Positions 5,388 to 57,490 of a DNA stretch of 64,000 nucleotides are shown here, piece by piece (the stretch's first letter is position 1; every line of letters starts with the position of its first letter). The position numbers and the translations under genes are program-made. Origin of the DNA: Candidatus Omnitrophota bacterium (lineage in GTDB: Bacteria > Omnitrophota > Gorgyraeia > Zapsychrales > Fredricksoniimonadaceae); NCBI GenBank assembly GCA_016201795.1, contig JACQCF010000002.1, positions 45,122-109,121 on the forward strand, read 5' to 3'. The notes under the pieces were generated by a model, which saw nothing but the letters and a program-made list of their open reading frames with translations, made no database searches and was not told the DNA's origin.

Positions 5388-6580
5388 AAGCAGCAGATTT
5401 TAATAAAGCCACGGCGGTTAACGACGGGCAGGAGGCCAAGAAAGCGGGCTATAAAGTTCCGTTCGGCACCGTGTCCATTACGGACAAAGCCAAGAAGCTT
5501 ATTGATGAGGCTATTGATCATCGCTGGCTGACCAAGGGCAAATACGTCAAAGAGTTTGAAGAGAAATTCGCCGCGCTTTTTGGCGTCAAATACGGCATTG
5601 CGGTTTCTTCAGGGACAGATGCGGATGCCATTGCCTGTGCGGTGCTTTATGATTTTGGCGCACAGCGTGCAGATGAAATTATCATCCCGGCATTGACGTT
5701 TGTGGCCACCGGTAATGCCGTGCTGCAGGCTGGGTTTAAGCCGGTGTTTGTGGATGTCAAACGCGAGACCCTCAACATTGATCCGGATAAGATCGAAGCC
5801 GCCATCACCAAACGCACGCGTGCCATCATGCCCGTGCATTTGATGGGTAAACCGGCGGATATGGACAAGATTGTGAGTATTGCCAAGAAGCACAAGTTGT
5901 ATGTCATCGAGGACGCCGCGGAAGCGCATGGGGCGCAATATAAGGGAAAGAAGATTGGCGCCATCGGGGAGATGGCCTGCTTCTCTTTATATGCGGCGCA
6001 TATCATCACCACCATCGAAGGCGGCATGATCATCACCAACAATGAGTCCATGGCCCAGGCGGCGCGATCTTTACGCAACCATGGTATCGACGGCAAATTT
6101 CGTTTCAAACGCATCGGGTTTTCCGCCAAGATGAATGAGCTCGAGGCTGCCGTGGGCTTGGGTAACATTGATATTTTTCACGATATATTGGAAAAACGCC
6201 GCCGTAACGTGCGTTATTTGATGAAGCAATTTGCAAGGTTTGAGAAATATTTCTGGTATCTGAAAGAAGACAGCCATGAGGTTTTAGGGCCGCACGCCTT
6301 TTCCATCATCGTCAAGCCTGGCCTTAATTTCACCAAAGACGAATTTGTGACCTTCCTCGAGAAAGAGGGAGTGGATTCACGCAATCTGTTCTATTCCATT
6401 CCTACCCAGACGGACAGTTATCAAGGAATGGGGTATAAACTCGGTGATTTTCCCCAAAGCGAATACTGTTCCGACCAGGGCACGCATATCGGCTGTCATC
6501 AGGACATCGAGCAGAACCAGCTGGATCATGTCGTCCTAACGGTTGAAAAATTCCTTAAATCTAAAGGCCATCAAGTTTAA
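5384..6580 (+). CDS. DegT/DnrJ/EryC1/StrS family PLP-dependent sugar aminotransferase
   Basis: DegT-fold motifs are present (GTDADAIA, MPVHLMGKPADMD, EDAAEAHGA). The likely start is MKAADF at 5384, in ATGA overlap with hddC. Confidence 0.75.
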   Translation: MKAADFNKATAVNDGQEAKKAGYKVPFGTVSITDKAKKLIDEAIDHRWLTKGKYVKEFEEKFAALFGVKYGIAVSSGTDADAIACAVLYDFGAQRADEIIIPALTFVATGNAVLQAGFKPVFVDVKRETLNIDPDKIEAAITKRTRAIMPVHLMGKPADMDKIVSIAKKHKLYVIEDAAEAHGAQYKGKKIGAIGEMACFSLYAAHIITTIEGGMIITNNESMAQAARSLRNHGIDGKFRFKRIGFSAKMNELEAAVGLGNIDIFHDILEKRRRNVRYLMKQFARFEKYFWYLKEDSHEVLGPHAFSIIVKPGLNFTKDEFVTFLEKEGVDSRNLFYSIPTQTDSYQGMGYKLGDFPQSEYCSDQGTHIGCHQDIEQNQLDHVVLTVEKFLKSKGHQV

Positions 6581-10935: not shown

Positions 10936-12623
10936 GGGAAAATTTCTTTTTTAAAAAACCAACCGGTTGGGACGTGTTGGCCATGGCACTTTTGGTGGTC
11001 TTTGTCACATACCAGCCGTTTTATATGCAGCATGAGATTATCATGATGGAAACCGGTATTCATCTGCCGGCGATTAACGCGTTGTTTCATGGGTTGGTGC
11101 CATACCGTGATTTCTTTTTCTTGCGTGGGCCAATAGAACTTTATATACCTGCGGTCATGATGAAAATTTTTGGCGTTAATTCCGCCCTACTGCCGGCATT
11201 TTATTATGGAGGAACTATTCTGACCCTTATTTTATGCGTGATACTTGCCGGTGAGTTGTTTCGTTCACGTTTGATTCTTTATACCATGGTTCCGGTTTTT
11301 GTGGCCCGCACTTTCCCACGGATTGCTTATTATTATTGGGGAGGACTGCGTTACGCTATGGGGTTTTTGGTGCTATTGTTCCTGTTTTATTTTTTCAAAA
11401 CCCAGCGTCGCCGTTGGATTTTTTTAACGGGTATGATGTGCGCCTTATCCGCACTGACCACACCGGAGGCGGGGCTTTCCACAGTTTTAGCAGTGCTTGC
11501 GGCGTTGGTGTGTGCTTTTGGTTTTCAAGTCTGTGACCGGCATTTTCTGTGGCGATGTTTTTGGGTTTTTTGTGCCGGTTTCGCAATCGTCATTGTTCCT
11601 TATGTGGTGTATTTGATTCAAACCGGTTCTTTTCATGCATTGGTGGAGTCGACGTATGTGGTGGTAACACTCATGGTTGATGCGTTTCCAGGCGCTGCGG
11701 GCATTAAACCTGAAACACCTCTGCAGTTTTTAGTGGCCTGCATTCCTGGAACAAAATTTTTTAAATACATGAGTGTGCTGTGGTGCTATCTATTCTTTGC
11801 GGTGTTCTTGTGGTATAAAGCTCGTTATAAAAAGCTGGATTGGGTACACGCATTTCTGATAGGAGTTGCCGTTTATGGCTTGGTATTGTACGCGGCGGCG
11901 TTTCGTAAAATTGAAGGCCATCATTTTGAGATGGCCCTGCAGGTGGAGAAATTTATTTATTTCTTTTTGATGGAATGCGCCATACTGTATATGTGGACGC
12001 GGTGGGCAACGCTTCATATTACCTTTGCGTGGCGCCGGCGATTAGTTTATGGTATGGCCATGGGGGTATTCCTTTCTTCGGTCGCCTACGCGTTGAATAG
12101 ATTTGACCACCGTTTCACGATGATGAAGCTCATTGAGAGACAAGTTTTGCATAAAAAGAAAGTGAAAGGTTTATCAGTGCTGGAGGGTCAGGAAACTGCC
12201 GTTTTGAACATTGAGCGGGCCCGTGGCCATATTGTGCCCCGCTGGCAGGAAGAGGAGATCAAAGGGGTAGTTGAATTTTTAAAAATGCACACCCGCACTG
12301 ATGAAGCGGTTTTTTGCTTTCCTGAATTGGGGAATTTTAATTTTTGGGCGGATCGGCCCTTTGTCGGCCGTTTTCCGATTGTCACATTTACTTGGATGTA
12401 TGAGCCCTGGTATCAGGAACTTTTGGCGGATTTTCAAAAAACCAGGCCGCATTACGTGGTGATGACGCATTTAGGCCACCGGACTTTTCCGCAACTTTGG
12501 TATTTTCGTAATCCGCAAAACCAAGAGCGTTTTGAGCAAATGACACAGCTCATTTTAGCCAATTATGCGCCGGTCCAGTCATTTGAGTCGGTAGCCATTT
12601 ATGAACGCAAGGACAGGAGATGA
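10932..12623 (+). CDS. Large polytopic membrane protein, putative GT-C-type transferase (paralog B)
   Basis: The same architecture and conserved blocks as 7707-9380 (GIHLPAINALFHGLVPYRDFFFLRGPIELY; C-terminal FPELGNFNFWADRPFVGRFPIVTFTW). The start is placed at the internal ATG (MRENFFF) in ATGA overlap with the upstream stop, because the 5' extension of the ORF overlaps the preceding gene. Confidence 0.45.
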   Translation: MRENFFFKKPTGWDVLAMALLVVFVTYQPFYMQHEIIMMETGIHLPAINALFHGLVPYRDFFFLRGPIELYIPAVMMKIFGVNSALLPAFYYGGTILTLILCVILAGELFRSRLILYTMVPVFVARTFPRIAYYYWGGLRYAMGFLVLLFLFYFFKTQRRRWIFLTGMMCALSALTTPEAGLSTVLAVLAALVCAFGFQVCDRHFLWRCFWVFCAGFAIVIVPYVVYLIQTGSFHALVESTYVVVTLMVDAFPGAAGIKPETPLQFLVACIPGTKFFKYMSVLWCYLFFAVFLWYKARYKKLDWVHAFLIGVAVYGLVLYAAAFRKIEGHHFEMALQVEKFIYFFLMECAILYMWTRWATLHITFAWRRRLVYGMAMGVFLSSVAYALNRFDHRFTMMKLIERQVLHKKKVKGLSVLEGQETAVLNIERARGHIVPRWQEEEIKGVVEFLKMHTRTDEAVFCFPELGNFNFWADRPFVGRFPIVTFTWMYEPWYQELLADFQKTRPHYVVMTHLGHRTFPQLWYFRNPQNQERFEQMTQLILANYAPVQSFESVAIYERKDRR

Positions 12624-14302: not shown

Positions 14303-15403
14303 ATGAGCGTTCCGTTTATTGATTTTAAAGAACAACACCGCCTGATCCAAAACGAGGTGGATACGGGTTTTAAAAAAGTTTTTGAAAAAGGCGATTATAT
14401 TTTAGGCGAGCAAGCTGTTATCTTCGAGGGCGCTTTTGCTAAATATTGCGATTGTGCTTATGGGGTGGGTGTCAATTCCGGTACCGACGCGTTGTATTTG
14501 GCCCTTTGCGCATTGGATATTGGCCCAGGTGATGAAGTGATTGTGCCTACCTTCACTTTTATTGCTACGGCATTGTGCGTTTCGTTTTGCGGTGCTCAAG
14601 CGGTGTTCGTCGACGTTGAGCCGGATACTTACAACATTGACCCTCAGGCATTCGCCAGGGCCATTACCAAGAAAACTAAAGCGGTGATTCCAGTGCACAT
14701 CTATGGTCAGCCGGCGAACATGAATGAAATCTCTGCCATTGCCCGCAAGCACGATATTAAGGTGGTTGAGGATGCAGCTCAGGCCCATGGTTCGCGTTAT
14801 CAGGGCAAGCGCGCGGGATCCCTGGGGGATGTGGCGTGTTTCTCTTTTTATCCGACCAAAAGTCTGGGCGCTTGCGGGGATGCCGGAATGATTGTCACCA
14901 ACGACAAGGCGATTTATCAGAAGGCGCTGATGCTGCGCGATTACGGCAGAAAGGGCCGTTATGAACATAAGATTAAAGGGCATAATTCCCGTCTGGATAC
15001 TCTGCAAGCGGTGGTGCTCAATGCCAAATTAAAACATCTGGATGCATGGAATACTTTACGCGCCCAAAACGCTGTTTATTACAATGAGCTTCTTAAAGGC
15101 GTCAAAGGCGTGGTCACGTCGGTTGTCAAAAGTGACCGTACCCACGTTTATCAGACGTATGCCGTGCGGGTGGCCAACCGCGATAAGGTCATGGAAGGGA
15201 TGAAGGCCAAAGGAATCAGCGTCCTTATCCATTATCCGATTCCTCTACACCTTCAGGAAGCCTATCAAGAGTTAGGTTATCAAAAAGGAGCTTTTCCCTT
15301 CGCGGAAGCCGTGGCTGATGAGATCATGTCTTTGCCGATGTTTCCTCACATGAGCAGGGAGCAAATTGAAACCGTGGTGAGGGCTTTGAAAGAATCTTTA
15401 TGA
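14303..15403 (+). CDS. DegT/DnrJ/EryC1/StrS family aminotransferase
   Basis: GTDALYLAL, VPTFTFIAT, EDAAQAHGS and the Lys-containing FSFYPTKSLGA motif. Confidence 0.8.
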   Translation: MSVPFIDFKEQHRLIQNEVDTGFKKVFEKGDYILGEQAVIFEGAFAKYCDCAYGVGVNSGTDALYLALCALDIGPGDEVIVPTFTFIATALCVSFCGAQAVFVDVEPDTYNIDPQAFARAITKKTKAVIPVHIYGQPANMNEISAIARKHDIKVVEDAAQAHGSRYQGKRAGSLGDVACFSFYPTKSLGACGDAGMIVTNDKAIYQKALMLRDYGRKGRYEHKIKGHNSRLDTLQAVVLNAKLKHLDAWNTLRAQNAVYYNELLKGVKGVVTSVVKSDRTHVYQTYAVRVANRDKVMEGMKAKGISVLIHYPIPLHLQEAYQELGYQKGAFPFAEAVADEIMSLPMFPHMSREQIETVVRALKESL

Positions 15404-19311: not shown

Positions 19312-21108
19312 ATGATTGCCCAAGTTGTTTTTGATCTGCCTTTAGAAGGCCCTTTCGATTATCTGATTCCTTCTTCCTTAAAATCTTCCATCGCTCCTGG
19401 TTTGCGCGTGAACGTATTGTTAGGCACTAAAAAACGCACAGGCCTGGTGACGGGTTTATTAGAGCAAAGTTCTTTTGAAAATTTAAAATCTATTAAATCT
19501 GTCATCGATGAAAAACCACTGTTAGATCAAGCCCAGATGGATTTAGGATCAGATTTGAGCCGTTATTACGGCTGTTCTTTGGGAGAGGCGCTTTTTACTA
19601 TTTTACGCGGATCTTCTGTTATTGAATCAAGTGTCATTGCGAGGAGCGAAGCGACGAAGCAATCTAATAAGATTGCCACGCTCCCTGCGGTCGCTCGCAA
19701 TGACAACAATGACAAACTAACACTACATGTTGTTCCTTCAGGAGATTATGTACCCATTCTGGTTTCTGTCATGAAACCTTTGGTGCAAAGAAAGCAGCGG
19801 GTATTGATTTTAGGGCCGGATCAGTTTGCCGTCCAAGCGATACAGGAGGCCTTAAAGAAATATTTCTCCAAAAATGATTACTTCATCGGCGCAAGATCAA
19901 TGGTGTTTCGTTCTTTGATGGGCATAGCTTTGGTGATGATGGTCGATGAGGACAACCCTTCTTATAAACAGGAACAAACTCCCCTCTATGAAACCCGTCA
20001 GGTACTTTTGATGCGCGCCAAGAGGGAGAATATCGATGTTGTCTTTATCAGCGCTACCCCGTCGGTGGAAATCATGGATTTGGTACACAAAGGCAAAATT
20101 CATCTCAAGAACTATCCGGCCAGGGGTCTGGTCAAACCGCAGGCCGTTGATTTAAATAATTACAAAATACTTTTGAAGGGGCTTTTGTCGCCGGCGGTTT
20201 TGTCAGCGCTTGAACGCAATGTCTCTGGCGGGACAAAATCGATTTTAGTGTTTAATCATCGCGGTTCTTATGCGGTCACCCGTTGCAGCGAGTGTGGTTT
20301 TGTACTCAAATGCGGGCGTTGTGACAGCCCCATGCTCTACTGGCGAGCCAAGAAACAATACTTCTGCCGCCATTGCTCTTTTCATTGTGAGCCAGACATT
20401 GTTTGCCCTCATTGCCAGGTGCCCAGTTGGAAATCTTTTGGTCTTGGCATTGAGCCATTGCAAAAAGCCTTGCAGGAAAAGTTTCCGACGTCAAGGATCC
20501 TGACTTTTGAGAGGCGCTCGCCACAGATTTTAAAGGATTATGATATTCTCGTCGGTACTTCGGCGCTTTTGCGGTTTAAATATCAGATACAAGCCGCACT
20601 GGTGGTGCTTTTGGATATCGATGAGGAACTTAATCGTTTGGACATACGCTCCTGTTTTCGTGCTTTTAGTCTGGCCGGGCATTTAAGAGGTATGGCCCAG
20701 GGACAGTTTTTGATTCAGACTCGTCATCCCAACCATTATGTGATCAAATCCTTTAGCGAAGATGACGCGGATATCTTTTACCGCGAAGATATGCGTATCC
20801 GCCGGGAACTGGCACTTTGCCCGTTTGGCCATCAGGTGATGATTCACCTGCGCTCTTTGCAGCAAAAACTGGGCCAACAAGCAGCGCAAGAACTTTATCA
20901 AGCATTGAACTCTTTGTCGTCCCCGAATGTTTCTATGAAGATTCACGCCCCCGTGGCGGAAGCGGTGGCTAAAAAGCGGGATCAATATCGTTTGAATATT
21001 CTGGTGCAAGGCGAGGATGTTATTGATATGATAGCCTTTATTAAAAAAGCCATGAGGCAGACCAAACGCCGCAGTAAGGTCATAGTAGTTTTAAATGTTG
21101 ATCCGTAG
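19312..21108 (+). CDS. Primosomal protein N' (PriA) homologue with degenerate helicase motifs
   Basis: Colinear with PriA: an N-terminal 3' DNA-binding domain, a helicase core and the Cys-rich zinc region (CSECGFVLKCGRCDSPM...CRHCSF...CPHCQ). Walker A reads VVPSGDY instead of GxGKT, motif II reads DEDN instead of DEEH, and motif VI reads LAGHLRG instead of QxAGRAGR. Confidence 0.75.
   Translation: MIAQVVFDLPLEGPFDYLIPSSLKSSIAPGLRVNVLLGTKKRTGLVTGLLEQSSFENLKSIKSVIDEKPLLDQAQMDLGSDLSRYYGCSLGEALFTILRGSSVIESSVIARSEATKQSNKIATLPAVARNDNNDKLTLHVVPSGDYVPILVSVMKPLVQRKQRVLILGPDQFAVQAIQEALKKYFSKNDYFIGARSMVFRSLMGIALVMMVDEDNPSYKQEQTPLYETRQVLLMRAKRENIDVVFISATPSVEIMDLVHKGKIHLKNYPARGLVKPQAVDLNNYKILLKGLLSPAVLSALERNVSGGTKSILVFNHRGSYAVTRCSECGFVLKCGRCDSPMLYWRAKKQYFCRHCSFHCEPDIVCPHCQVPSWKSFGLGIEPLQKALQEKFPTSRILTFERRSPQILKDYDILVGTSALLRFKYQIQAALVVLLDIDEELNRLDIRSCFRAFSLAGHLRGMAQGQFLIQTRHPNHYVIKSFSEDDADIFYREDMRIRRELALCPFGHQVMIHLRSLQQKLGQQAAQELYQALNSLSSPNVSMKIHAPVAEAVAKKRDQYRLNILVQGEDVIDMIAFIKKAMRQTKRRSKVIVVLNVDP
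19633..19703 (+). mobile_element. MITE-like palindromic repeat element inserted in frame within the priA-like CDS (copy 1)
   Basis: GTCATTGCGAGGAGCGAAGCGACGAAGCAATC...GCTCCCTGCGGTCGCTCGCAATGAC has terminal inverted repeats and a near-identical copy at 35103-35193. It encodes the low-complexity insert VIARSEATKQSNKIATLPAVARND. Confidence 0.7.
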
Positions 21109-32870: not shown

Positions 32871-32910
32871 ACTTATAAGTTACATCACTCCGTTCTGTAA
32901 CTTATGTGCT
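32870..32910 (+). promoter_or_regulatory. Inverted repeat (GCACTTATAAGTTACA ... TGTAACTTATGTGC) immediately upstream of the metE RBS; candidate operator
   Basis: 14-16 bp arms with a 10-bp perfect core ATAAGTTACA, about 15 nt upstream of the AGGAG RBS of metE. Confidence 0.35.
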
Positions 32911-32924
32911 CATTAAGGAGAGGC

Positions 32925-35090
32925 ATGAAAACTTACGCTTACGGATTTCCGCGGTTGGGAGAAAATCGCGAATATAAGAAAGCCATCGAAACTTTTTGGG
33001 AAGGTGAGGGCTCAGAAGAAGGGCTCAACCATACACTCCATGAGCTTCAGGCGAATATGCTGCAGATCTATGCCTCTGCCGTGAATGTTTTCCCCGTCGG
33101 TGAAATGACCGCTTATGATCCTATGCTCGATACGGCCGTTATGCTGGGGGTTTATAAGCCTAAGAATTTACAGGAATATTATGAATTGTGCCGCGGCGCA
33201 GGCGCTTTGGAGATGACCAAATGGTTCAATACCAATTACCATTACCTGGTGTCTGATTTTTCCGCCGTTAAAAGCCCGTCTTTTGAACTACATTGGAATA
33301 AACCCCAGCAATACCGTGAACGTTTTGGCAAGGGCATCCCTTATGTGATTGGCCCATTTACTTTCCTTAAATTAAGCAAAGGGTTAAGCAAAACACAATT
33401 CAAGTCAGCCCTGGAAGATTTGACCGGAGTTTACCGATCTTTGTTCACTTCTTTGCAAGAAGTGCACGTGGATGAGCCTGCTTTGGTGCTGGAACTTTTC
33501 AGCGATGAGATTGAGGGCGTTAAGAAGGCCTATGAAATTCTTGGCCAGTCTGCTAAGGTCCACCTTTTTACGTATTATGAGCAGGTAGATTTTTTAAAGC
33601 AATTGTACGATCTACCAGTGGCCTCGTTGGGGTTGGATTTTGTGCACGGTATTAAAAATCTTCAGACCATTAAAAAATACGGTTTTCCTAAAGACAAGAC
33701 TTTAATCGCCGGTGTGGTGGACGGGCGCAATATCTGGAAGAATGATATTCGCCATTCGGTGGAGACGCTGAAAGCTTTGAGCCGTCAGGCAAAATCTATT
33801 TGGGTTTCCAATGCCGGTCCGTTGTTCCATCTTCCCATCACCACCGAAGGGGAACATCTGGATTCCCGCCTGATGGGGAATTTGGCGTTTGCCAAACAAA
33901 AGCTGCAAGAGATTGGTACCATCGCGGCGTGCGCGCAAGGACGTCAGAAGGTGAAGGTGCCGTCTGATTCTGGTGTGCGCGTATTAGGTCAGAACAAGAA
34001 AGTGCAGACCAGGATTAAGACGCTTACCACCAAAGATTTTAAGAAATTGGTGCCGCTAGCCAAGCGTCGGGCGATTCAAGATAAGATTCTGCATCTTCCT
34101 TCTTTTCCGACGACAACCATTGGCAGTTTTCCTCAGACCCCAGAGGTTCGCAAATACCGGGCCGATTACCGTGCCGGCCGTATTACCGAGCAAGAATATA
34201 ATGCCTTTGTGCAGAGGGAAATCCGTCAATTGATGAAGTTTCAAGAGGAACAGGGGTTGGATGTTCCGGTCCACGGAGAATTCGAACGCACCGACATGGT
34301 GGAGTTTTTTGCCGAACAGTTGGACGGCGTTGCCACCACGGCCAATGGCTGGATTATTTCTTACGGCACGCGTGCGTACCGGCCGCCTATCATTTTTGGA
34401 GATATCTCCCGTCCCAGACCCATGACCGTCAAGGAAATCGTTTATGCCCAATCTTTAACCAATAAGCCGGTCAAGGGTATGCTCACCGGCGCAGTTACCA
34501 TCATCGCCTGGAGTTTTGTGCGCGAGGATATTCCCATTAAGGATGTAGCTTACCAGATCAGTTTGGCCTTACGGGATGAAATTCATGATTATGAGAAAGC
34601 TGGTATTAAAATTGTCCAGGTGGATGAGCCGGCCATCCGGGAAAGGGCCCCCATCAAACGGGGCGATTGGCCAAAATATTTCGATTGGGCCATCAAATCC
34701 TTCCGTCTGGCTACCAATACTGCTCCCGAGACCCAGATCCACACGCATATGTGTTATTCGGAGTTTGGGGAGATCATCAAGCAGATTGACGCCATGGATT
34801 TTGATGTCATTTCCATCGAGTCCACCCGCAGCCGGGGAGATATCATCAAAAACTTCGAGCGGATTGATTTTAAGAAACAGATTGGTCTTGGCGTTTGGGA
34901 CATCCATTCGCCGGCCATTCCTACCGTTGAGCAGATGAAACAGGTGGCTCAGAGGGCGTTGAGGGTTATTCCCAAAAGAAATTTCTGGATCAATCCTGAT
35001 TGCGGTCTCAAGACCCGCGGATGGCCGGAGACCGAGGCATCTCTAAAAAATTTGGTCACCCTGGCCAGTCAGTTGCGTCATCAGAAGTAA
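32925..35090 (+). CDS. metE: 5-methyltetrahydropteroyltriglutamate--homocysteine S-methyltransferase (cobalamin-independent methionine synthase)
   Basis: N-terminal KTYAYGFPRLGENREYKKA, a two-domain length of 720 aa, and the C-terminal zinc site region (HMCYSEFGEII...DCGLKTR). Confidence 0.9.
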   Translation: MKTYAYGFPRLGENREYKKAIETFWEGEGSEEGLNHTLHELQANMLQIYASAVNVFPVGEMTAYDPMLDTAVMLGVYKPKNLQEYYELCRGAGALEMTKWFNTNYHYLVSDFSAVKSPSFELHWNKPQQYRERFGKGIPYVIGPFTFLKLSKGLSKTQFKSALEDLTGVYRSLFTSLQEVHVDEPALVLELFSDEIEGVKKAYEILGQSAKVHLFTYYEQVDFLKQLYDLPVASLGLDFVHGIKNLQTIKKYGFPKDKTLIAGVVDGRNIWKNDIRHSVETLKALSRQAKSIWVSNAGPLFHLPITTEGEHLDSRLMGNLAFAKQKLQEIGTIAACAQGRQKVKVPSDSGVRVLGQNKKVQTRIKTLTTKDFKKLVPLAKRRAIQDKILHLPSFPTTTIGSFPQTPEVRKYRADYRAGRITEQEYNAFVQREIRQLMKFQEEQGLDVPVHGEFERTDMVEFFAEQLDGVATTANGWIISYGTRAYRPPIIFGDISRPRPMTVKEIVYAQSLTNKPVKGMLTGAVTIIAWSFVREDIPIKDVAYQISLALRDEIHDYEKAGIKIVQVDEPAIRERAPIKRGDWPKYFDWAIKSFRLATNTAPETQIHTHMCYSEFGEIIKQIDAMDFDVISIESTRSRGDIIKNFERIDFKKQIGLGVWDIHSPAIPTVEQMKQVAQRALRVIPKRNFWINPDCGLKTRGWPETEASLKNLVTLASQLRHQK

Positions 35091-35102
35091 TTTATATTTG
35101 GA

Positions 35103-35193
35103 GTCATTGCGAGGAGCCGAAGGCGACGAAGCAATCCCAAAAGAATTAATTTTTGTTGAGATTGCTTCGCTCCCTACGGTCGCTCGCAATGAC
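35103..35193 (+). mobile_element. MITE-like palindromic repeat element (copy 2) in the convergent metE/metF intergenic region
   Basis: The same termini as copy 1 (GTCATTGCGAGGAGC...GAAGCAATC / GATTGCTTCGCTCCCT..GGTCGCTCGCAATGAC), with a longer AT-rich central spacer. Confidence 0.7.
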
Positions 35194-35202
35194 ACGTATC
35201 TT

Positions 35203-36048
35203 TTAGCGGCGGACCTCTTTCAGGATAATGTCCGTCGGAGAAATTTTATTGAGGGTATAGAAGTGCAGGCCGGGGGCACCTTGATCAAGAAGCTCTCGGC
35301 ATTGCTCAACAGCAAAACGAATACCTGCCTCTAATGTTTTAGCCGGATCATCTGCGAGGGGTTTAAAAATCTCATGGACCTTCACCGGGATAGAAGCCCC
35401 GCAGAGTAAGCAAAATCTCACCAAAGCCTGATAATCGGTAATAGGTAAAATTCCGGGAATAACGGGTTTGTTCACACCTAATTTTTTCAAACGCGCGATA
35501 TAATCAAAATAATCCTGATTGTCAAAAAAAAGCTGGGTGATGACGTAATCCGCTCCCGCATCAATTTTGGCTTTGAGATGCTGCGCGTCCACCTCGCGAT
35601 TGGGGGCTAACATATGCCCCTCGGGGAAACCGGCCACTCCAATGCCAAAATAAGAGTTAAAATGTTGACGGATAAAGGCCACCAGCTCACTGCTGTATCG
35701 AAAGTTTTTTGGCCCCGGCTTCCAGTCGGGATGATCTTTGGGAGGGTCTCCCCGCAAAGCCAGGACATTGCTGATTCCCCGGCGTTTGATCTCTTCGAGA
35801 ATCGTTTTAATTTCGTCTTTGGTATGTAGGACACAGGTTAAGTGAGCCACCGCCTTGATATGATGTTTATTTTGAATATGTTCTACAACGTCCAATGTTT
35901 TCTCGCGGCTGCCGCCTCCGGCGCCGTAGGTACAGGAGATGAAATCCGGTTTTAAGCCAGCTAGCTGATCAATGATCCCCAGCAATTTCACGTACCCCTC
36001 GGGGGTTTTGGGGGGGAAGAGTTCAAAAGAAATAGTGGGAAAGTTCAT
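35203..36048 (-). CDS. metF: 5,10-methylenetetrahydrofolate reductase
   Basis: N-terminal NFPTISFELFPPKT and the LRGDPP FAD-binding signature. The start is placed at the ATG at 36048-36046, overlapping the stop of the upstream membrane gene. Confidence 0.88.
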   Translation of the reverse strand: MNFPTISFELFPPKTPEGYVKLLGIIDQLAGLKPDFISCTYGAGGGSREKTLDVVEHIQNKHHIKAVAHLTCVLHTKDEIKTILEEIKRRGISNVLALRGDPPKDHPDWKPGPKNFRYSSELVAFIRQHFNSYFGIGVAGFPEGHMLAPNREVDAQHLKAKIDAGADYVITQLFFDNQDYFDYIARLKKLGVNKPVIPGILPITDYQALVRFCLLCGASIPVKVHEIFKPLADDPAKTLEAGIRFAVEQCRELLDQGAPGLHFYTLNKISPTDIILKEVRR

Positions 36049-37142
36049 CGATATGCGCCTGTTGGCATATTCCATTTAATTTTATTTAGGAAAAAGATGA
36101 AGATAGGATCCCAACACCAACCAGTGAAGAGGGGAAAAATAGCCATGACCCACACATATTGGCGCTGGAGAAACCAATAGCCGGTTACAGCATCTGCAAT
36201 CATTAATAACAGGATCGGCAAAATAAAAATAGTCATTAAGAAACCAGCTACGATCAAACGGTCTTGTTTGGGCCACCATAACCGTAGCGCAATCCCGATT
36301 AACAGTAAATAGAAGAGTTTAAATCCGATTAAATTGGTCATTACTGCTTTTAGAAAATTAATCGGATCTACCAAGGGGTTAGGAATAAACTGAAAAACAT
36401 CAAGTTCGAGGTACCTATGGTTATAGAAGGGGCTGGATGGATTGCCTTTATTATAGTAGAGCCATAGAAGTAACCCAACAAAGCTTAAGCTTAACCAGAA
36501 ACGCCAGCGGCGTTGAATGAACGGGATAAATCCTGTTTGCCGATAATCCCTTAATAAGAAAAATAATCCCCAGCAACATATGATGAGCAAGCCATACGGA
36601 TGATAAATGATTGTTAGAATTAAAGCGATCCAATATAAGATACATTGCATCCGTGAGGGGGATAGTAAGGGATTCATAAGGCTTTCAAGGATGTAGAAGG
36701 TGGAAAGCCCTAAGGCGGCCAGCATGCTATAGGGCCTAAGCTGCAGGGCATGATAAATCAGTTGTCTGTGCAATGCAAACATGGCAAAGGTCATTAGCCA
36801 ACTGAGGGGGTGTTTGAGATAGCGTTGGCAAAGTAACCCCAGCACATAGAAGCCTAACAGGGTTGATAAGAAATGGGGGATTGCCACTCCCCATTTGTTC
36901 TCTTTGAAGATTTGTATAAAAGGATAGGTGAGTAGGTAATCGCCGGGAAAAGAATGCGATTCGCCGTAATCAGCCGTAAGCCAAAATGGCTTAAGGGGCC
37001 CCACCGTATGTTTATATTGGCACAATTCATCTGTAGACCATTCGTGCTGCCTGTAGATATCTATGCGCCACCAAAGACCGAGCAAGGTAATAACGAAAAC
37101 AGAGATTAGCAACCATTTAGGCGGGGATGATATTTTTTGCAC
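36045..37142 (-). CDS. Hypothetical polytopic membrane protein (GT-C-like topology), co-transcribed with metF
   Basis: An N-terminal TM, then an acidic loop (WSTDELCQYK...ADYGESHSFPGDY), then at least 9 TM helices. Its stop overlaps the metF start (ATGA). Confidence 0.4.
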   Translation of the reverse strand: MQKISSPPKWLLISVFVITLLGLWWRIDIYRQHEWSTDELCQYKHTVGPLKPFWLTADYGESHSFPGDYLLTYPFIQIFKENKWGVAIPHFLSTLLGFYVLGLLCQRYLKHPLSWLMTFAMFALHRQLIYHALQLRPYSMLAALGLSTFYILESLMNPLLSPSRMQCILYWIALILTIIYHPYGLLIICCWGLFFLLRDYRQTGFIPFIQRRWRFWLSLSFVGLLLWLYYNKGNPSSPFYNHRYLELDVFQFIPNPLVDPINFLKAVMTNLIGFKLFYLLLIGIALRLWWPKQDRLIVAGFLMTIFILPILLLMIADAVTGYWFLQRQYVWVMAIFPLFTGWCWDPIFIFFLNKIKWNMPTGAYR

Positions 37143-56380: not shown

Positions 56381-57490
56381 ATGATCGCGTGTATTAATCC
56401 AAAAGCGCAATATTTGTCCTACCAGGCGGAGATTGACCATGCGGTAGCCCGTGTGTTTCAAGAAGGTAGGTATATTTTGGGCAAAGAGGTGCAACTTTTC
56501 GAGGAGGAATTTGCCTGCTATGTCGGTGTGAAGCATGCTATTGGTGTTGGCAGCGGCACGGAAGCGTTACATATGGCGCTGGTCGCTTGCGGGGTGGGTA
56601 AAGGTGATGAAGTGATCACTGTTTCTCATACAGCTGTGGCAACGGTGGCGGCTATTGTGTTAAGCGGTGCTGTACCGGTTTTGGTGGATATAGAGCCCTC
56701 CACATATAACATGGATCCTCATCAGCTGAAAACAAGTATTACGCCCAAGACCAAGGCTATTATTGTGGTGCATCTTTATGGACACCCGGCGGATATGACG
56801 CCTATTATCCAAATTGCCCATGAGCACGGGATTAAGGTGATTGAGGATTGCGCGCAGGCGCACGGTGCAAGGTATGAAGGTAAACGGGTGGGGGCCTGGG
56901 GCGATATGGCCTGTTTTAGTTTTTATCCGACGAAGAATTTGGGTGCTATTGGCGACGGCGGGGCGGTGGTGACCAATAATGAACATTTGGCTGATCAATG
57001 CCGTCTGCTGCGCGAGTACGGCTGGTCTAAAGAGCGCGTAAGCCAGATGGCGGGATGGAATTCCCGTTTGGATGAACTGCAGGCAGCAATTTTACGGGTT
57101 AAATTAAGATATCTGGATAGAGATAATCAATTAAGACAACAGTTGGCTGCCTGCTACAATCAATCATTGGTTCATACGGGACTGGTGCTTCCTTTGGAAA
57201 AATCAAATTGTAAGCACGTGTATCATCTTTATGTGGTGCGCAGTCAAAAGCGTGATGAGTTAAAAGAAGCCTTATCGACCCAAGGAGTTCAGACGATGAT
57301 TCATTATTCTGTCCCTGTGCATTTACAGCCCGCCTACAAAGGGTGCGTAAGGGTCGCCCATGAGTTAAAGGAAACCAAGCGTATTGTTAGCGATATTTTA
57401 TCTTTGCCTTTGTATCCGCAATTATCTCTTATCGACGTTAAAGAGGTGGCAGAGACTATTGGGAAGATAACGGCAAGGGGGAGTCGTTGA
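56381..57490 (+). CDS. DegT/DnrJ/EryC1/StrS family aminotransferase
   Basis: [18 protein letters not shown] and the Lys block [17 protein letters not shown]. Confidence 0.8.

Follow-up and report, generated by a model that had tools for sequence, protein, structure and literature searches.

Two described systems come closest to the element reported here. Di Nocera, De Gregorio and Rocco (2013, BMC Genomics 14:522; PMC3733652) defined the CGTC-tagged repetitive extragenic palindromic sequences (REPs; families CGTC-1 to CGTC-4), in which an unpaired tag (CGTC, TGTC or CCTC) precedes a stem beginning with AT and a short tail, and which occur mostly as head-to-head dimers. They were known from five phyla and include Neisseria dRS3 as well as RPE-4 and RPE-6 of Rickettsia conorii (RPE, Rickettsia palindromic element). 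Their stems measure 8–9 bp with loops of 4–5 nt, intragenic dimers account for 20–30 aa, genes for replication, repair and tRNA synthetases being notable hosts, and there is "apparently no dedicated transposase" (PMC3733652). Chenal et al. (2025, Nat Commun 16:2388; PMC11893778) reported that hairpins (NTS and the generalised SRM) flank the genes of single-domain GIY-YIG enzymes, the site-specific nucleases for single-stranded DNA (ssDNA) called Ssn (CDD cd10448). SsnA binds its hairpin solely as ssDNA, not as RNA, and its cleavage site lies a few nucleotides to the 5' side. Both the GTC that precedes the palindrome and the C that follows it are critical. Transformation of N. meningitidis is modulated by the NTS/SsnA pair. 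The NTS-ssnA-NTS layout was likened to an insertion sequence, mobility was only hypothesised, and Ssn nucleases were presented as tools (PMC11893778). Here, we analysed a 64,000-nucleotide stretch of a Candidatus Omnitrophota genome (GCA_016201795.1, contig JACQCF010000002.1, positions 45,122 to 109,121; the whole stretch is called the window), which carries two copies of a palindromic element, one of them in frame within a priA-like gene. With a probability of about 80%, the two copies are dimers of REP-like hairpin sites of the CGTC-tagged REP/SRM kind, arranged head to head and devoid of an open reading frame (ORF), for which a nuclease-bearing full-length form exists. The association of GIY-YIG genes with hairpins is already known (PMC11893778) and is not new here. 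New are the sequence variant and its phyla, which by comparison of sequences lie outside the published definitions of CGTC-tagged REPs and Ssn hairpin dimers.

Two hairpin dimers in the window

The copies and their parts are as follows.
19312–21108, plus strand: PriA-like host gene, 598 aa, with PF17764 (PriA_3primeBD) and PF18074 (PriA_C)
19633–19704, plus strand: copy 1, head-to-head dimer of two hairpin arms, 72 nt, in frame in the priA-like gene
19633–19664, plus strand: left arm of copy 1, arm type A
19633–19643, plus strand: outer motif GTCATTGCGAG of this left arm
19644–19655, plus strand: variable core GAGCGAAGCGAC of this left arm with a GCGAAGC mini-hairpin
19656–19664, plus strand: inner motif GAAGCAATC of this left arm
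19665–19670, plus strand: central loop TAATAA of copy 1, 6 nt, the position of the GIY-YIG gene in full-length units
19671–19704, minus strand: right arm of copy 1, arm type B, minus strand reading GTCATTGCGAG-CGACCGCAGGGAGC-GTGGCAATC
35103–35193, plus strand: copy 2, head-to-head dimer, 91 nt, between the metE stop (35090) and the metF stop (35203)
35103–35136, 35137–35159 and 35160–35193: left arm, loop (23 nt) and right arm of copy 2

Both palindromic copies were found where a sequence-only reading of this DNA had placed them. For copy 1 the proposed start (19633) was correct, but the proposed end (19703) was one base short, since the copy finishes at 19704 and measures 72 nt rather than 71. 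It begins with GTCATTGCGAG at 19633, ends with CTCGCAATGAC and is flanked by T (19632) and A (19705). The terminal inverted repeats had been called near-identical. This holds for the outer 11 nt and the inner 6–9 nt of the arms, which are complementary, but not for the middle of the arms, so that the description was overstated. The window holds four exact matches to the 11-mer GTCATTGCGAG or its complement, one at each end of the two copies and none elsewhere; even with one mismatch, 0.93 matches are expected there by chance. Copies 1 and 2 can be aligned along the two arms; the differences are two small indels in the left arm and the loop length (6 nt vs 23 nt), and the right arms share 92% identity across 36 nt. 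All four arms follow the plan GTC-ATTGC...GCAAT-C. In three of them the tag is TGTC, whereas copy 2 has AGTC in its left arm; the stem opens with ATT, and the tail consists of C and then T or C.

On either strand, each copy folds far better than shuffled sequences do. RNA folding yielded long imperfect hairpins of −38 to −52 kcal/mol (z −6.7 to −9.5), and none of 200 shuffles was as stable; with DNA parameters, z-scores of −7.1 and −7.9 were obtained for the two copies. Logan assemblies of two runs from one study (SRR12113410 and SRR12113409) independently reproduce the junction between flank and arm at both copies, and thus the insertion is not an artefact of the metagenome assembly. Independent contigs end inside the copies, one of them 26 nt into copy 1 (L334, window position 19658) and another 27 nt into copy 2 (L331, about 35167). 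These breaks suggest the behaviour of a k-mer assembler at a multi-copy repeat, the arms being repeated in those samples.

The sequence-only reading had proposed that copy 1 adds about 24 residues in frame to the priA-like gene, and it does comprise exactly 24 stop-free codons in frame 0 of ORF 19312–21108 (aa 108–131, reading VIARSEATKQSNKIATLPAVARND). The insert occupies the linker that joins the 3'BD/winged-helix part (aa 1–102) to the next domain (from aa 136). The AlphaFold2 model of the protein has a mean predicted local distance difference test score (pLDDT) of 82.5, and its sole long stretch below 50 covers residues 105–132. In the predicted structure the insert thus coincides with a low-confidence (disordered) interdomain loop. 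When 19 PriA relatives were aligned (43–81% identity), none of them carried the insert residues, which indicates a lineage-specific insertion. The closest relative (P0002; 78% identity in BLASTP, 81% in the alignment) has a linker of 19 aa compared with 36 aa in the window protein, a net gain of 17 aa, not 24. Alignment with the DNA of this 78%-identical priA (L121) yielded no exact insertion junctions because the surrounding linker itself has diverged.

One might argue that the insert is a native low-complexity linker of PriA, or an ancient internal duplication, that resembles copy 2 by chance, and its location in a length-variable linker would be compatible with this idea. We consider the probability of such a scenario negligible, since the insert is absent from 19 of 19 relatives including the 78%-identical one, the same sequence recurs in hundreds of unrelated loci, and its 72 nt hold the full two-arm architecture. 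According to the sequence-only reading, an ancient duplication would have meant no further copies and an insert conserved in the orthologues; we found the opposite, abundant copies elsewhere and orthologues without the insert.

The syntenic priA orthologue of another Omnitrophota genome (P0061; L322, about 11261–11350) carries a degenerate in-frame copy of the element at a different site (DNA GTCATTaCGAGCGACCGAAGaGAGCGAAG..., protein VITSDRRERSPL..., region ...VITSDRRERSPLSARSRQSKGLADNPL...). Odd inserts at the alignment position of the P0061 insert were also seen in the relatives P0014, P0033 and P0067. The Omnitrophota PriA-like proteins (P0001–P0100, about 560–640 aa) match only the 3'BD and the C-terminal PriA domains of Pfam; DEAD and Helicase_C matches were found in none of them, unlike in the more distant proteins P0114–P0120. 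They may represent a shortened or divergent form of PriA.

A dispersed family with a GIY-YIG partner gene

Scanning for the outer motifs of the element (GTCATTGCGAG-N40-70-CTCGCAATGAC) returned at least 120 IMG/VR viral contigs, and a GTDB scan with one genome per species and a narrower subfamily pattern returned at least 120 genome stretches. Thus, the assumption of a dispersed palindromic repeat family with further copies was confirmed. The hosts among the matches listed include Patescibacteria, Chloroflexota, Nitrospirota, Omnitrophota, Planctomycetota, NC10 and Desulfobacterota, and further Alpha- and Gammaproteobacteria, Elusimicrobia, Bacillota, Zixibacteria, Aminicenantes and others; across these phyla and the viral contigs the 11-nt termini are identical. 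The complete chromosomes of Bradyrhizobium sp. LMG 9283 and Altererythrobacter sp. GH1-8 carry the element, as do two uncultured phage records and five plasmids (Methylosinus trichosporium OB3b pOB3b1, Methylocystis rosea, Halomonas). The pOB3b1 copy is an unannotated 80-nt dimer between convergent genes. Complete E. coli genomes carrying the element were not found. This rarity in well-studied replicons may explain why the variant has remained unlisted.

The copies follow a common plan, Y-GTCATTGCGAG-[X]-(GAA/GCG/GTG)GCAATC-[loop]-GATTGC(TTC/CGC/CAC)-[Y']-CTCGCAATGAC-R. X and Y' occur in three main forms (short; GAGC..GCGAC; CGACC..GGAGC) and have a fixed point at which perfect local hairpins of differing length are accommodated, GCGAAGC being the minimal one. 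Each arm (about 33 nt; 32–36 nt) reads 5'-YGTC / ATTGC-GAG-(small local hairpin)-GAA-GCAAT / C-3'. Its contiguous stem, ATTGC/GCAAT, measures 5 bp and encloses 12–15 nt with their own mini-hairpin of variable length. The inner motif ..GCAATC is present in about 97% of the copies. When the inner triplets were tested for covariation, mostly unpaired arm-to-arm combinations were observed. Since an arm can fold on itself via ATTGC/GCAAT and the arms are under no constraint to pair mutually at the inner triplet, the element is a head-to-head pair of hairpin sites.

Among 264 non-redundant copies, direct repeats of 1–8 nt at the flanks, as expected for a target-site duplication, were found at chance level only. 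Position −1 is C or T in 246 copies, position +1 is G or A in 254, and the two positions are complementary in 200. On average 3.0 of the six reading frames of a copy are open compared with 2.1 in shuffles, the maximum being four because CTCGCAATGAC contains TGA in one frame. This excess hints at selection for stop-free sequence. Among 138 copies (genome loci plus window), 17 lie in frames that are open for at least 80 codons on both sides, and 14 of these 17 are read with the right end (A/P)RND. Pfam-confirmed in-frame hosts are the valyl-tRNA synthetase (ValRS) of another Omnitrophota genome (L197, also 72 nt), SecA (L221), a MiaB-like radical-SAM protein (L164), an FAD oxidoreductase (L147) and a Wzy_C protein (L226). 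For two copies in L138 a location upstream of rplA and nusG is more likely than one inside these genes. With the 24-aa insert as protein query, doubled for a length of at least 40 aa, only short spurious ORFs and no host proteins were returned, and NCBIfam assigned neither the element peptides nor the nuclease described below to a family. Many "hypothetical proteins" of 40–85 aa in public protein sets (P0121–P0151) are translations of the element, similar to ORF 35098–35334 of the window.

When we clustered the ORFs near the element in the genome loci, one small recurrent family emerged, a GIY-YIG protein of about 95 aa. In L235 its gene sits exactly between the left and the right arm, and L181 and L111 are similar. 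For an association test, 80 metagenome loci were picked only for encoding a relative of this protein; since the query proteins came from window-type units, the sample is biased to this subfamily. Here, we found the outer motif (at most one mismatch, within 250 nt of the gene) on both sides of the gene in 50 of the 80 loci and on at least one side in 61, compared with 2 of 186 control windows flanked on both sides. Close to the gene the motif density was 5.39 per kb, as against 0.42 per kb in the remainder of these loci.

Clean full-length units (n = 38) measure 357–496 bp, the long form overall about 360–500 bp. The start codon of the GIY-YIG gene lies 15–40 nt past the inner left motif and its stop often overlaps tGAGATTGC. 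Element sizes are bimodal (50–125 and 350–500 nt), and remnants of the nuclease gene were found in 0 of 20 elements of intermediate size (115–345 nt). L269 (1811–2708) contains a full-length unit and, behind it, a tandem array of five gene-less dimers (about 93 nt each, identical 12-nt spacers, period about 105 nt). Arrays with periods of about 123–190 nt were also seen in L242, L288 and L290.

These data bear on the classification of the element as MITE-like (MITE, miniature inverted-repeat transposable element) in the sequence-only reading. A classical MITE would have arisen from an insertion sequence by deletion, and a DDE transposase recognising its terminal inverted repeats would move it in trans; the short length, the perfect 11–12-nt termini, the many dispersed copies and the longer gene-bearing form would all be in line with this. 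In contrast, no target-site duplication of 1–8 nt rose above chance among the 264 copies, partly deleted intermediates were not found, and the arms are REP-like hairpins. The sole recurrent neighbour is the gene of the 95-aa GIY-YIG nuclease; neighbour clustering of 240 loci revealed no recurrent transposase or Y1 family, although in the GC-rich viral loci this clustering was swamped by spurious ORFs and phage structural genes. In its classical sense the term must be dropped, and we consider an origin of this type highly improbable.

The GIY-YIG protein matches only PF01541 in Pfam. Its family is large (17,279 representatives of 50%-identity clusters at E up to 1e-3; 6,498 at 1e-10), and the source names are only "GIY-YIG nuclease family protein" or "putative endonuclease". 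The sole solved relatives by sequence are two UPF0213 structural-genomics proteins (nearest E 1.7e-7). The catalytic Tyr-Tyr-Glu residues are spaced by 11 and 47 residues, equal to Y6/Y17/E64 of SsnA. The arms of a homologue labelled Omnitrophota (P0176) fit the Neisseria NTS consensus, and this protein shares 61% identity with a protein that has window-type arms. Thus, the proteins form one family and the arms fall into distinct classes. The identical 96-aa P0176 protein occurs on nine contigs (L323–L327 among them) with NTS-like arms (tGTCATTCCCGCGCAAGCGGGAATCCAG), its gene always adjoins a large serine recombinase gene, and the unit possibly lies inside a larger integrative element. Other arm classes were observed at the nuclease genes of L311 and L320 (GTCATCCTGAA... 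and CGTCATCCCGCTACTTGATCGCGGGATCCAG), the latter fitting the published SRM pattern. Many cluster representatives of the nuclease (e.g. P0272, P0275, P0279) are 120–170 aa long with a C-terminal GIY-YIG domain. In these calls the start codon was probably placed too far upstream, so that they read through the left arm.

Comparison with described systems and the preferred reading

With the Ssn/SRM systems the window-type elements share a single-domain GIY-YIG partner of about 95 aa, a gene bracketed by inverted hairpin repeats of 20–50 nt, a conserved GTC directly 5' of the palindrome with a C directly 3', and hundreds of gene-less copies in many phyla. They differ in that the window-type arm (GTCATTGCGAG..GAAGCAATC, 32–36 nt, 5-bp closing stem plus inner variable hairpin) lies outside the published SRM search pattern (HGTCWYN(0-2)YYVSBRHN(0-5)WNVSBRGN(0-2)RNCYNB), and that the 64-kb window holds no ssn gene. 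The published pattern does find NTS and the L323 arms. Near the nuclease gene it occurred in 1 of the 80 protein-selected loci, and the window-type motif in 61.

With the CGTC-tagged REPs they have in common the tag, the stem starting with AT, the short C-rich tail, the head-to-head dimers and the intragenic insertions of 20–30 aa (24 aa for copy 1). In contrast, the stem of the window arms has 5 bp with a 12–15-nt interior that contains a mini-hairpin, and the 2013 work described no associated enzyme and covered phyla that excluded Omnitrophota and Patescibacteria (PMC3733652). In REPIN-RAYT systems (REPtrons), too, two inverted REP hairpins form a unit of 70–110 nt, the partner gene is flanked by inverted REPs, target duplications are lacking and ssDNA hairpins are recognised. 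However, the tag is YGTC here rather than GTAG, and the partner is a GIY-YIG rather than an HUH/Y1 enzyme, that is, one with no known strand-joining chemistry. Moreover, window-type arms are near-identical across phyla, whereas REPINs are reported to be mostly inherited vertically. The sequence-only reading had pointed to the Rickettsia palindromic elements. RPE-1 and its like are also palindromes in frame in housekeeping genes, tolerated as surface peptide segments, but they belong to another lineage, and RPE-1 is longer and unrelated in sequence. The comparison was nevertheless apt, as RPE-4 and RPE-6 have been placed in the CGTC-tagged REP superfamily with its in-frame dimers in replication and repair genes (PMC3733652). 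Searches of the literature for the DNA and peptide strings of the element gave only primer coincidences or nothing, although the variant may stand in the supplement of PMC11893778. In the literature searched that cites the CGTC-tagged work GIY was not mentioned, and searches on COG2827/UPF0213 and on GIY-YIG with MITE or transposase returned nothing relevant.

How might hairpin dimers with a nuclease-bearing full-length form, the reading we prefer, act? By analogy with Neisseria SsnA, each arm would fold into a hairpin when the DNA is single-stranded, i.e. during replication or DNA uptake. A cognate nuclease would then bind the arm via the GTC tag, the stem and the 3' C and would nick a few nucleotides 5' of the tag. 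For a head-to-head dimer this would mean one nick just outside each end, on opposite strands. By this analogy we infer that the nuclease of the variant may cut these arms and that cutting might lead to copying or mobility. Copy 1 would have inserted into the disordered interdomain linker of PriA, where it survives because it comprises exactly 24 stop-free codons, and copy 2 into a 3' intergenic gap. As the window contains no nuclease gene, the two copies would be passive sites.

Several observations weigh against this reading. The bimodal sizes lack ORF-bearing intermediates, and rather than short forms descending from long ones, the gene could be a later tenant of pre-existing dimers. No GIY-YIG ORF was detected within the 64-kb window. 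Apart from PF01541 the protein matches no Pfam family, and its placement in cd10448 is putative. The published SRM pattern matches none of 289 window-type dimers at a tag and nothing in the window, and the contiguous stem of the arm has 5 bp compared with 8–9 bp in the four published CGTC families. GIY-YIG enzymes cut DNA but do not join or ligate it. To our knowledge, no transposition has been reported for any Ssn/SRM unit.

An alternative scenario is that the hairpin dimers serve the host, with the GIY-YIG gene as secondary tenant or domesticated partner and with copies that are not mobile today. They might mark the host's own DNA against Ssn restriction of incoming ssDNA, or act as REP-like sites that stabilise mRNA or structure DNA. 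The modulation of transformation by Neisseria NTS/SsnA, for which mobility was merely hypothesised (PMC11893778), would fit in here, as would the bimodal sizes without intermediates, arm classes that can differ between 60%-identical proteins, and the location of most copies downstream of, or between, co-directional genes. Taking both variants together, we consider this scenario unlikely, since it leaves unexplained the 31 fixed bases that are near-identical across unrelated phyla and viral contigs, the lineage-specific insertions within essential genes, the tandem arrays beside the gene, and the assembly breaks that indicate many copies in the sample.

A more far-reaching proposal is that the window-type unit (two arms of about 33 nt plus the 95-aa GIY-YIG gene, about 360–400 bp) is an active, self-sufficient mobile element. 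We put this forward as a tentative and rather doubtful idea. If true, no smaller autonomous transposable unit would be known from bacteria. It would move through ssDNA without target duplication across phyla and partly on phages, and its gene-less dimers would have been shaped stop-free to lodge in frame in essential genes such as priA, valS and secA.

Independently of this proposal, the variant offers new candidate specificities for site-specific ssDNA nucleases and sharpens the question of the mobility of Ssn units. The published SRM pattern misses it wholly, yet window-type arms stand at 61 of 80 nuclease genes in a sample biased to the subfamily. Even with this bias, current censuses of Ssn sites probably undercount, especially in Omnitrophota, Patescibacteria, Chloroflexota and viral contigs. 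In annotation, the element accounts for many short spurious "hypothetical proteins" (VIARSEATKQS, SLRGAKRRSN, ..ARND), GIY-YIG calls that are over-extended at the N-terminus and breaks of short-read contigs. In evolutionary terms, PriA (twice), ValRS and SecA clearly illustrate that essential genes can tolerate in-frame repeats.

Surroundings of copy 2 and further observations

The neighbours of copy 2 are as follows.
32904–35090, plus strand: metE, cobalamin-independent methionine synthase (Pfam), upstream neighbour
35203–36075, minus strand: metF, methylenetetrahydrofolate reductase (Pfam), convergent neighbour
35098–35334, plus strand: spurious ORF of 78 aa, its N-terminus being the translation of copy 2 and the rest antisense to metF

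The location of copy 2 between convergent metE and metF, as given in the sequence-only reading, agrees with the Pfam assignment of both genes. Its judgement that ORF 35098–35334 is spurious is also supported, as this ORF matches no family and runs antisense to metF. In contrast, its suggestion that copy 2 could act as a bidirectional terminator was not substantiated. The hairpin is followed by ACGTATCTTTTAG on the plus strand and by TCCAAATATAAA on the minus strand without a T-run, and a terminator scan of both strands between 34800 and 35500 returned no terminator-like site. When copies located between genes were counted in the low-GC loci, 43 lay between co-directional and 5 between convergent genes; thus, no preference of the family for convergent intergenic regions was found there.

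More generally, the element might act at the transcript level as a structured RNA (intrinsic terminator, attenuator or small RNA). The very stable RNA hairpins on both strands and the position of copy 2 between convergent genes are compatible with such a role. On the other hand, there is neither a T-run nor a terminator-like site, copies are present in both orientations and within coding regions, the inner triplet shows no covariation between the arms, and the partner enzyme that has been characterised acts on ssDNA rather than RNA (PMC11893778). Rfam searches with the two window copies (E up to 10) gave only chance-level miRNA and snoRNA matches (E ≥ 0.12), and nine full-length units had no match at the gathering score, so that the element matches no Rfam family. 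Taken together, these data make a function as structured RNA very unlikely.

The window also contains a 164-nt direct repeat of 70% identity (14738–14901 and 56813–56976) with a shorter related match at 5834, 44031 and 56768. It probably reflects paralogous sugar-modifying genes in polysaccharide clusters.

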